Below are positions 21,098-21,901 of a stretch of DNA of 64,000 bases, piece after piece. The first letter of the stretch is position 1, and the number at the start of each line of letters is the position of its first letter. The stretch comes from an uncultured Planctomycetaceae bacterium (lineage in GTDB: Bacteria; Planctomycetota; Phycisphaerae; SM23-33). The stretch covers positions 10,887-74,886 of the forward strand of contig CAZSLS010000003.1 in NCBI GenBank assembly GCA_964607575.1, written 5' to 3'. The notes beneath the pieces are model-generated. The model did not search any database. It was given only the letters and a program-made list of their open reading frames with translations, and was not told the origin of the DNA. Position numbers and translations under genes: made by a program.

Positions 21098-21115
21098 CGG
21101 CCAGCAGCTGCGTCG

Positions 21116-21152
21116 AACGGCTTGAGCCACGGATGGCACGGATTACACGGAT
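21116..21152. repeat. Left arm of a perfect 37-nt inverted repeat bracketing the GxxExxY gene
   Basis: AACGGCTTGAGCCACGGATGGCACGGATTACACGGAT. Its reverse complement is identical to 21680-21716 (checked base by base). It contains three CACGGAT units in 9-nt phase. Confidence 0.9.
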
Positions 21153-21193
21153 AGAAACGGCGACGGCTAGGGCAGTAGTTACGGAAGGGTGGT

Positions 21194-21577
21194 ATGGGAA
21201 TGGGAAAACTGCTGTTTAGGGATGAGACTTATGCGATACGGGGGGCTGTGTTTGAGGTTCACTGTGAGATGGGATCCGGTTTTCTTGAGTCCGTGTATCA
21301 AGAATGCATGGAAAAGGAATTGACCAGACAGGGTATTCCTTTTGAAGCCGAGAAGAAACTATCGATTCTGTATAAGAACGAACCCCTCAACCAAATCTAC
21401 AAACCGGACCTGATCTGCTATGGTGAAATCCTTGTTGAATTAAAATCGGTGGCCGCCCTTAGACGCGAACACTACGCTCAAGTCATTAATTACCTGAAAG
21501 CAACCAACCTCCGCCTCGGCCTCCTGGTAAACTTCGGATCACACCCCAAAGCAACAATCGAAAGACTAATCCGATAA
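21194..21577 (+). CDS. GxxExxY protein (small PD-(D/E)XK-like family)
   Basis: 127 aa. Contains GSGFLESVY (GxxExxY), PDLICYGEILVELKS, QVINYLKATNLRLGLLVNFG and a C-terminal IERLIR. Confidence 0.85.
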   Translation: MGMGKLLFRDETYAIRGAVFEVHCEMGSGFLESVYQECMEKELTRQGIPFEAEKKLSILYKNEPLNQIYKPDLICYGEILVELKSVAALRREHYAQVINYLKATNLRLGLLVNFGSHPKATIERLIR

Positions 21578-21580
21578 ACC

Positions 21581-21622
21581 CAGAACCAGAACCAGAACCA
21601 GAACCAGAACCAAAACCACAAC
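21581..21622. repeat. Hexanucleotide microsatellite: (CAGAAC)5 plus CAAAAC and CACAAC
   Basis: Starts 4 nt after the TAA stop of the GxxExxY gene. Read directly from the sequence. Confidence 0.9.
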
Positions 21623-21631
21623 CGCCTGCAC

Positions 21632-21840
21632 CATCCGTAGCTAATGCCGTAGTCGTAGTCGTACGCCGTTGTCGTTACCATCCGTGTAATCCGTGCCATC
21701 CGTGGCTCAAGCCGTTGCCGTTGTCGTTACTATACGTATTTATCCGTGTTTATCTGTGTTCATCCGTGGCTAATGTCGTAGTCGTAGACATAGTCGTAAT
21801 CCGTGGTGAAAAATGTCGCAGGCGTTGTCGTTTCGGCGTG
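21632..21840. repeat. Mosaic of short repeats in the intergenic region downstream of the GxxExxY gene
   Basis: Imperfect direct repeat of about 32 nt (21632-21663 vs 21761-21792). ATCCGTG or ATCTGTG units at 21680, 21689, 21698, 21742, 21752, 21762 and 21798. CGTTGTCGTT occurs three times, and there are GTCGTA runs. Confidence 0.8.
21680..21716. repeat. Right arm of the perfect 37-nt inverted repeat
   Basis: ATCCGTGTAATCCGTGCCATCCGTGGCTCAAGCCGTT is the exact reverse complement of 21116-21152. The arms are separated by 527 nt. Confidence 0.9.
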
Positions 21841-21901
21841 CTGGAGGGGCTATGATATGCGGGAGAAGAGGGCGGCTTGAATAACGATTAGGAGAGGCGA
21901 T

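Follow-up and report, generated by a model that had tools for sequence, protein, structure and literature searches.

The locus and its inverted arms

We examined a 64,000-nucleotide (nt) stretch of the genome of an uncultured Planctomycetaceae bacterium, hereafter the window (C3:10887-74886; parent assembly of 7.3 Mb in 462 contigs), in which an earlier note, made from the letters alone, had singled out a small GxxExxY gene enclosed by inverted repeats. The names of homologs and the sequencing runs indicate a marine Phycisphaerae genome that was assembled from a metagenome. The GxxExxY gene is, as that note had said, the sole gene of an 804-nt gap between a gene with an HZS_alpha domain and a sulfatase gene. 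The gene and its inverted repeats (arms) are together called the cassette below. The gap and its neighbors hold the following features, in window coordinates.

18422-21097, forward strand: upstream gene of 891 amino acids (aa) with an HZS_alpha middle domain (profile match)
21116-21167, forward strand: inner left arm, AACGGC-TTGA-GCCACGGATGG-CACGGATTA-CACGGATAG and then a run of AACGGC-type hexamers (repeat analysis)
21200-21577, forward strand: GxxExxY / PDDEXK_3 gene, 125 aa from the ATG at 21200 (127 aa from the ATG at 21194)
21580-21623, forward strand: (CCAGAA) microsatellite, 7.3 copies, beginning 3-4 nt past the stop codon
21631-21663, forward strand: extra partial arm CCATCCGTAGCTAATGCCGTAGTCGTAGTCGTA, a direct repeat of 21761-21792 with partial complementarity to the left arm (85 per cent)
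21665-21716, forward strand: inner right arm, the reverse complement of 21116-21167 (48/52 paired, core 37/37)
21719-21792, forward strand: outer right arm in a second dialect, CGTTGTCGTT-ACTATACGTAT-TTATCCGTGT-TTATCTGTGT-TCATCCGTGGCTAAT and then hexamers, 10-nt phase (repeat analysis)
21796-21832, forward strand: trailing remnants, a single GTAATCCGTG unit and the third CGTTGTCGTT copy (repeat analysis)
21902-23398, forward strand: downstream sulfatase gene, outside the element (profile match)

The inverted repeat is exact, as first described: positions 21116-21152 and 21680-21716 are reverse complements at 37/37 positions, with a chance expectation of about 3e-15 for such a pair within the window, and the pairing reaches 52 nt (48/52) when 21116-21167 is set against 21665-21716. 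Each inner arm carries three CACGGAT units in 9-nt phase (at 21128-21152 on the left), and the 9-nt unit that contains CACGGAT is present in 2.8 copies per arm. The TAA stop codon of the HZS_alpha-domain gene overlaps an AACGGC hexamer, and the cassette begins 18 nt downstream. Within the arms, the open reading frame (ORF) spans 21194-21577; the ATG at 21200 is its likely start, matching the 125-aa form in the protein collection. The guanine-plus-cytosine (GC) content of the gene is 46 per cent, 13 points lower than the 59 per cent of the window and of the genome.

The microsatellite reported after the stop codon is present as a (CCAGAA) run and is a local expansion; truncated paralogous cassettes have one CCAGAAAC at that place. 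It also draws contig depths of 1,400-3,600 in all of the eight seawater metagenome runs that we searched, which reflect low-complexity cross-matching from other organisms and not the copy number of the locus; these runs were searched as assembler contigs, which break at repeats and cannot show rare variants. The imperfect direct repeat of about 32 nt (21632-21663 versus 21761-21792, 88 per cent identity) and the three exact copies of CGTTGTCGTT (at 21667, 21719, and 21823) were likewise found as described. The outer right arm, which lies outside the 9-nt inner arm, is one arm of a family with 10-nt phase. Its outer left partner is absent at the window locus and present, on both sides, in three truncated cassettes elsewhere in the genome.

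As single-stranded DNA, the cassette folds at -124.9 kcal/mol (z = -5.3 versus shuffles). Scans of the cassette found no promoter-like signal above chance and no intrinsic terminator; a T-run precedes the stem and an A-run follows it, which is the reverse of a terminator. The locus has no Rfam family match.

The GxxExxY protein

The window protein matches PF13366 (E = 9e-42; 142.6 bits, cut-off 22) and TIGR04256 GxxExxY (E = 7e-42; 142.4 bits, cut-off 35). Residues G29, E32, Y35, D72, E82, and K84, which form the G-x-x-E-x-x-Y motif and a D...E-x-K motif, are invariant in four paralogs of this genome, and the window protein retains its catalytic-type residues (E, D, and E-x-K). An AlphaFold2 model reached a pLDDT of 91.5 (one of five models at that level). 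Its nearest structures in the Protein Data Bank by Foldseek are Cas4 SSO0001 (4ic1, E = 2e-4) and lambda exonuclease, with AdnAB nuclease domains and archaeal Holliday-junction resolvases scoring lower. The PD-(D/E)XK homing endonuclease I-Bth0305I also matches the fold weakly. On this model, the protein is predicted to have a Cas4/RecB-like PD-(D/E)XK nuclease fold. The sole sequence match to solved structures, T7 endonuclease I, was insignificant (E = 0.8) and was not used. Orthologs at the same site in different species have ratios of nonsynonymous to synonymous substitution rates (dN/dS) of 0.15 and 0.20; the protein is under purifying selection. No PHROG family matched the window protein, and PADLOC returned only a weak partial match (PDC-M36A, E = 1.5e-4, 50 residues). 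A search for the GxxExxY family recovered 5,438 protein clusters at E <= 1e-10. We found no function assigned to PF13366/GxxExxY in the searchable literature.

Arm families dispersed through the genome

Both the arms and the repeat mosaic downstream of the gene belong to genome-wide families. The 804-nt gap matches more than 40 contigs of its own genome (BLASTN), and the outer right arm is its most repeated piece. In a census by regular expression, which required at least two CACGGAT-type units in 9-10-nt phase, we counted 96 CACGGAT arms in the genome and 0 in the reversed genome that served as control. About 79 arms have a 10-nt period (GCCACGGATGAACACGGATAAACACGGAT); about 15 arms, the window's inner arms among them, form a subfamily with a 9-nt period (GCCACGGATGGCACGGATTACACGGAT). 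The arms pair into 28 gene-less foldbacks of ~80-200 nt and 4 gene-bearing ones. The foldbacks are intergenic, with 14 located between convergent genes, and their aligned ends are sharp (TTAGCCAC...GTGGCTAA) and set in unrelated flanks. Arms differ in their unit sequence, and we call each version a dialect; all dialects have runs of AACGGC/GCCGTT hexamers and a T-run/(G/A)CCAC terminus.

In the 28 foldbacks, a left and a right arm differ by 7.29 mismatches when taken from one element and by 7.54 when taken from different elements (p = 0.29). The arms of one element are thus no more complementary than the arms of different elements, so that the conserved feature is the unit sequence and not the pairing. 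We accordingly dropped hairpin pairing as the conserved feature. Conservation of units over pairing, as read from these alignments, favors recognition by a protein over a constraint on RNA or on a single-strand hairpin.

Paralogous cassettes

The genome contains seven PF13366 loci, four intact and three broken, and 7/7 lie between inverted arms. The intact paralogs are 33-38 per cent identical to the window protein. By contig, the loci and their dialects are as follows.

C3 (window gene), intact: CACGGAT, 9-nt phase; inner arms 21116-21167 and 21665-21716
C127, intact (37 per cent identity with the window protein): CACGGAT, 10-nt phase; two complete foldbacks of identical sequence flank it, and two more (87-97 per cent) lie in the next intergenic gaps
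C179, intact: CACAGAG; 21 further arm clusters (control, 0)
C183, intact: CACGAAAGAA (CACGAAAG) dialect; replaces the middle of an integron-integrase-like gene
C338, C71, and C79, broken: 9-nt inner arms and 10-nt outer arms

Populations of gene-less foldbacks match three of the four dialects, and the CACGAAAG dialect has one arm beyond its cassette. The three broken cassettes have one deletion junction in common, which connects the inner left arm CACGGATGGCA with codon ~38 of the gene (window position 21306). The inner right arm is common to them as well, as are the outer arms at both ends; the sequences around the cassettes are unrelated. A +2 frameshift is common to C71 and C79. Because the same deletion junction and the same arms recur at unrelated loci, a defective derivative has been propagated, arms included.

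Two of the intact loci have surroundings of their own. At C127:5272-8406, four foldbacks with 10-nt phase occupy consecutive intergenic gaps around the GxxExxY gene and are 87-100 per cent mutually identical, far closer than the dispersed copies; this likeness suggests local spread or gene conversion near the gene. The cassette at C183:190-685 replaces ~740 nt in the middle of its integron-integrase-like tyrosine recombinase gene. An intact 432-aa paralog of the interrupted gene lies at C172:13695-15004, and the retained ends are 85-87 per cent identical to it at the nt level.

Gene-arm linkage across relatives and phyla

We surveyed 30 related genomes up to class level, in which 29 PF13366 loci had enough flanking sequence, and used 300 random positions of the window's own genome as control. 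The flanking inverted-repeat score was 17-92 in 27/29 loci; the random maximum was 13. Intact GxxExxY genes number 0-4 per genome in most relatives. The type of unit follows the protein clade: window-like proteins go with CACGGA[AT], and C179-like proteins with CACAGAG, CACAAAG, or CGCAGAG. The cassettes at G008:C233 and G013:C403 are wedged, with almost no spacer, between adjacent genes (a NuoF-like gene and the next operon gene; an ABC permease gene and an ATPase gene), and at G008:C233 the reading frame of the upstream gene continues into the left arm, which supplies its stop codon. Around the genes of two relatives, frames of 835 and 572 aa were considered as in-frame fusions and rejected as spurious high-GC frames, the cassettes lying between adjacent genes.

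The linkage extends to other phyla, which bears out a suggestion in the earlier note that similar heptad-rich flanks accompany GxxExxY genes there. Desulfobacter postgatei and Mariprofundus erugo encode proteins 69 per cent identical to the window protein; the gene lies between an amidase gene and mutL in the former and between hsdR and hsdM in the latter. In both species, the arms consist of CACGGAA/CACGGAT units that start with AACCAC, and the spacers between units differ from those of the window's genome. The Desulfobacter cassette is minimal, its arms abutting the start and stop codons. The arm units are conserved across phyla where synonymous sites are saturated.

Within the genus, we compared unit counts in the own genome (G000) and in four congeners (G001-G004).

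CACARAG hits: cognate gene present in G000 (28) and G003 (99); none detected in G004 (3, site empty), G001 (14), and G002 (29)
CACGGAT hits, 10-nt phase: cognate gene present in G000 (116) and G004 (17); none detected in G003 (1), G001 (5), and G002 (30)
CACGGAW hits, 9-nt phase: cognate gene present in all five genomes (23-92)

The abundance of a dialect within the genus tracks its cognate gene, G002 being an exception for two dialects.

Presence and absence among congeners

Searches with joined flanks in the four congeners found occupied and empty versions of several sites. Between purL and purQ, the own genome has a 750-nt cassette and G003 an orthologous one (83 per cent aa identity), whereas G004 has an empty 45-nt spacer and G001 an unrelated hairpin repeat. 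The C127 site holds a cassette in the own genome and in G004 and is empty in G002 and G003. At the C79 site, G001 has a foldback of another dialect and G004 an unrelated gene. The window-clade gene (66-75 per cent aa identity) is at a different locus in each of G001-G004, and the site of the G001 cassette is a 25-nt spacer in the own genome. This empty counterpart (C259:6634-6658) contains GTCACTGATCACTGATCACTGG, a mini-array of CACTGAT units with a 7-nt period, which may be a footprint or belong to a further family of repeats.

The window locus itself also differs among congeners. The HZS_alpha-domain orthologs of three congeners are 82-83 per cent identical to the window gene and have the same stop, and the sequence downstream differs: there is no element in G004, only a TACGGATAAACAGGGAT remnant in G002, and a gene-less foldback of a different dialect in G003. 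In G002 and G004, two extra genes, for a 264-274-aa membrane protein and a 483-491-aa sulfatase, follow the HZS_alpha-domain gene. The ortholog of the window sulfatase comes after them in G002 and was not found in G004 within the 3 kb examined. The cassette occupies the place of the two extra genes in the own genome; the window locus thus differs from its congeners also by two missing neighbor genes, and the exact empty-site comparisons rest on the other loci. A strain ~90 per cent identical to the own genome, seen in two of the metagenomes, diverges exactly at the HZS_alpha stop codon. The earlier note had counted arms unique to this locus, and orthologous loci holding the same sequence, as signs against a cassette; the arms proved to be dispersed and the orthologous loci to differ.

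The same intergenic sites in congeners also carry gene-less hairpin repeats of other dialects (TTCTAGGTGCTAGG units; ACATGGATT units), for example in the purL/purQ spacer of G001 (contig C62) and in G003. To judge from these sites, several foldback families of the genus seem to gather preferentially just downstream of stop codons.

A probable mobile nuclease-plus-repeat element

The gene and its arms are a discrete unit that was inserted and copied. Paralogs that all carry arms, defective copies at three loci, and congener sites without cassettes uphold the proposal of a self-contained, DNA-level mobile or mobilizable module, and the copying of a frameshifted cassette, the low GC content of the gene, its cross-phylum homologs, and its differing loci agree better with a unit that moves horizontally than with a host gene. 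The cassette is most likely a small mobile nuclease-plus-repeat element, of which we found no description in print. More specifically, we give slightly better than even credence to a nuclease with cognate foldbacks that is functionally parallel to the REPIN-RAYT and NTS-Ssn systems and differs from them in enzyme fold and repeat architecture. Our confidence is moderate for the partnership of nuclease and repeats and lower for nuclease-driven mobility, which we infer.

Under such a partnership, several nuclease protomers would bind to the two arms, where the units recur at every helical turn, and would cut at or near the conserved T-run/GCCAC termini or in the loop. Host repair or replication could then copy the unit by either of two routes: the entire foldback might move in a transposition-like manner, or what lies in the loop might home, by gene conversion, into foldbacks that have the same dialect and no gene. 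The nuclease would act in trans on gene-less foldbacks and on defective cassettes, and homing would also account for the spread of the frameshifted cassette nested between arms with 10-nt phase.

Several observations weigh against this interpretation. Gene-less copies at different loci are mostly 70-94 per cent identical, and the sole pairs at 97-100 per cent are neighbors on one contig, which gives no hint of very recent dispersal. In the aligned copies we could not define a target-site duplication, the T-run/A-run ends being part of the inverted repeat and a TA duplication being indistinguishable from it. Orthologs at the same site show that a cassette can keep its place through speciation. 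In the contigs of the eight metagenome runs (in which rare variants are not visible), the window locus has no junction of excision, of inversion, or of an empty site: the joints seen correspond to the paralogous truncated cassettes, and one opposite-strand joint, from 21306 to 21697, matches their junction and not a flip of the window locus. G002 has 30 hits of the 10-nt-phase dialect and 29 of CACAGAG with no detected cognate gene, in an assembly that is 80 per cent complete and in which a contig breaks at one arm next to purQ. Simple co-inheritance would likewise produce linkage of gene and arms across phyla, and only the conservation of the units argues for function. Finally, the searchable literature holds no demonstration of nuclease activity, DNA binding, or movement for any GxxExxY member.

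Comparison with known systems

Ssn proteins are small GIY-YIG single-strand-specific nucleases flanked by the repeats that they cut (NTS/SRM); cleavage of single-stranded DNA and an effect on transformation have been demonstrated, with a host function shown in Neisseria, and many enzyme-repeat pairs appear to be co-evolving in a layout that the authors liken to an insertion sequence (IS) (PMC11893778). The cassette resembles them in having a small single-domain nuclease gene between inverted repeats (20-50 nt) with many genomic copies. It differs in its predicted PD-(D/E)XK fold (the window protein has no GIY-YIG match) and in its arms, which are phased arrays of units, whereas an NTS is one hairpin with an oriented upstream motif. 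Ssn activity is demonstrated, whereas GxxExxY is known here from sequence and model.

Like a RAYT gene with its REPINs, the cassette is a single small nuclease-type gene flanked by inverted repeat copies. The repeat also occurs as many gene-less intergenic palindromic doublets, often at gene 3' ends; there is a cognate repeat type for each gene, and the gene can be vertically inherited under purifying selection. RAYTs, the REP-associated tyrosine transposases of these REPtrons, are however Y1/HUH enzymes of the IS200/IS605-like kind, whereas the cassette protein matches only PF13366 in Pfam. The arms of the cassette comprise 2-4 phased 7-nt units (9-10-nt period) with hexamers, in contrast to the repetitive extragenic palindrome (REP), a single hairpin with a GTAG-type head. 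GxxExxY genes also differ in having close homologs with matching arms across phyla and several paralog/dialect pairs in one genome.

With IS elements and miniature inverted-repeat transposable elements (MITEs), as with Mu and Tn7, the cassette shares terminal inverted repeats that contain several phased subterminal sites. Further likenesses to IS elements and MITEs are gene-less derivatives that far outnumber gene-bearing copies, internally deleted copies, nested insertions, copies at unrelated loci, and insertion polymorphism between relatives. Unlike them, the cassette encodes no recognized DDE, HUH, serine, or tyrosine transposase, its sole supported ORF being that of the 125-aa PF13366 protein. 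No direct target-site duplication is seen, though one of TA would be hidden by the inverted repeat, and the copies are diverged, with no burst of identical insertions.

PD-(D/E)XK homing endonucleases such as I-Ssp6803I are similar in that a small free-standing nuclease gene lies within a sequence that its product possibly recognizes, and if repair carried the gene into gene-less copies, both the gene-in-loop layout and the copying of defective cassettes would be accounted for. The cassette, however, is not in an intron or intein, its presumed targets are dispersed foldbacks and not one conserved host gene, and homing is here our conjecture.

Alternative explanations

The main alternative is a domesticated nuclease that reads the repeats and serves the host, possibly by modulating transformation, recombination, or replication restart; it would cut or bind unit DNA, perhaps single-stranded, and have no part in the spread of the foldbacks. 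Such a role would suit the persistence of same-site orthologs across species at dN/dS of 0.15-0.20, the few genes per genome, the position of the repeats at gene 3' ends (as in REP and NTS), and the lack of evidence of recent transposition; Ssn genes, moreover, combine the gene-between-repeats layout with a proven host-level effect (PMC11893778). It fits poorly with a defective, frameshifted cassette that was still copied to three loci with its arms, with a window-clade gene that is at a different locus in each congener, with close homologs that have the same arms in three phyla, and with a gene GC content 13 points under that of the genome. We consider it unlikely, though a serious contender; by analogy with RAYTs, which are both, a host nuclease and a mobile element need not be exclusive.

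Passive co-location would have the foldbacks gather in permissive intergenic DNA made by a small horizontally acquired gene, with no functional link between the two. The gaps after stop codons are indeed hot spots for unrelated hairpin repeats, the dialect at a site differs by species, and arms are often nested or multiplied. Yet inverted arms stand on either side of 7/7 own loci and of 27/29 in relatives, with scores above all 300 random controls; the dialect follows the protein clade even across phyla with saturated synonymous sites; and in the minimal Desulfobacter cassette the arms abut the start and stop codons. This explanation is largely refuted by the results obtained, and we regard it as improbable.

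More doubtful still is an RNA-level element, which the earlier note had proposed by analogy with intervening sequences of ribosomal RNA (rRNA): the arms of a transcript would pair as a long stem, and this stem would either stabilize the mRNA or be cut (by RNase III, for example) so that the ORF is excised or processed. The strong predicted stem and the location of elements at gene 3' ends, where co-transcription is possible, speak for it. rRNA intervening sequences, however, lie inside a 23S rRNA helix, have a stem that RNase III cuts, and encode a four-helix-bundle PF05635 protein, whereas the cassette lies between protein-coding genes, encodes a PF13366 protein with a predicted nuclease fold, and has no Rfam match. 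The unit sequence is conserved and the pairing is not, the T-run and A-run are placed in the reverse of a terminator's order, and the model leaves both the protein-tracking dialects and the copying of cassettes unexplained. A mobile DNA cassette is the better reading, and we consider RNA-level excision very improbable. An invertible switch, which the note had also named and in which recombination between the arms would flip the gene relative to an outside promoter, draws on the perfect 37-nt inverted repeats around a single gene and is scarcely credible, given that there is no recombinase gene within 3 kb, no inverted junction at the cassette arms in the contigs from the eight metagenome runs, no promoter-like signal above chance, and that the arms are members of ~100-copy families that are mostly gene-less.

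Implications

The genome analysed here offers an unusually clear within-genome picture of a nuclease gene and its repeats, with four gene/dialect pairs and one defective cassette copied to three loci. If the nuclease acts on the arms, PD-(D/E)XK would be a third independent fold to have adopted the lifestyle of a nuclease with cognate dispersed repeats, after HUH/RAYT and GIY-YIG/Ssn. The common intergenic hairpin repeats of Planctomycetota and other phyla, which also fragment metagenome assemblies, would then be explained, and a set of small sequence-reading nucleases would be opened to direct biochemistry. We also put forward a broader proposal, which is tentative and which we lean against in its full extent: GxxExxY proteins may serve as the dedicated enzymes for foldbacks of a class that is very widespread and crosses phyla, in which each ~125-aa PD-(D/E)XK nuclease reads its own dialect of 7-nt units and drives the copying of foldbacks or the homing of its own gene, serving defective and nested elements in trans. 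If true, it would give a function to a very large uncharacterized family and would provide a natural collection of small nucleases that differ in the short repeats they recognize.

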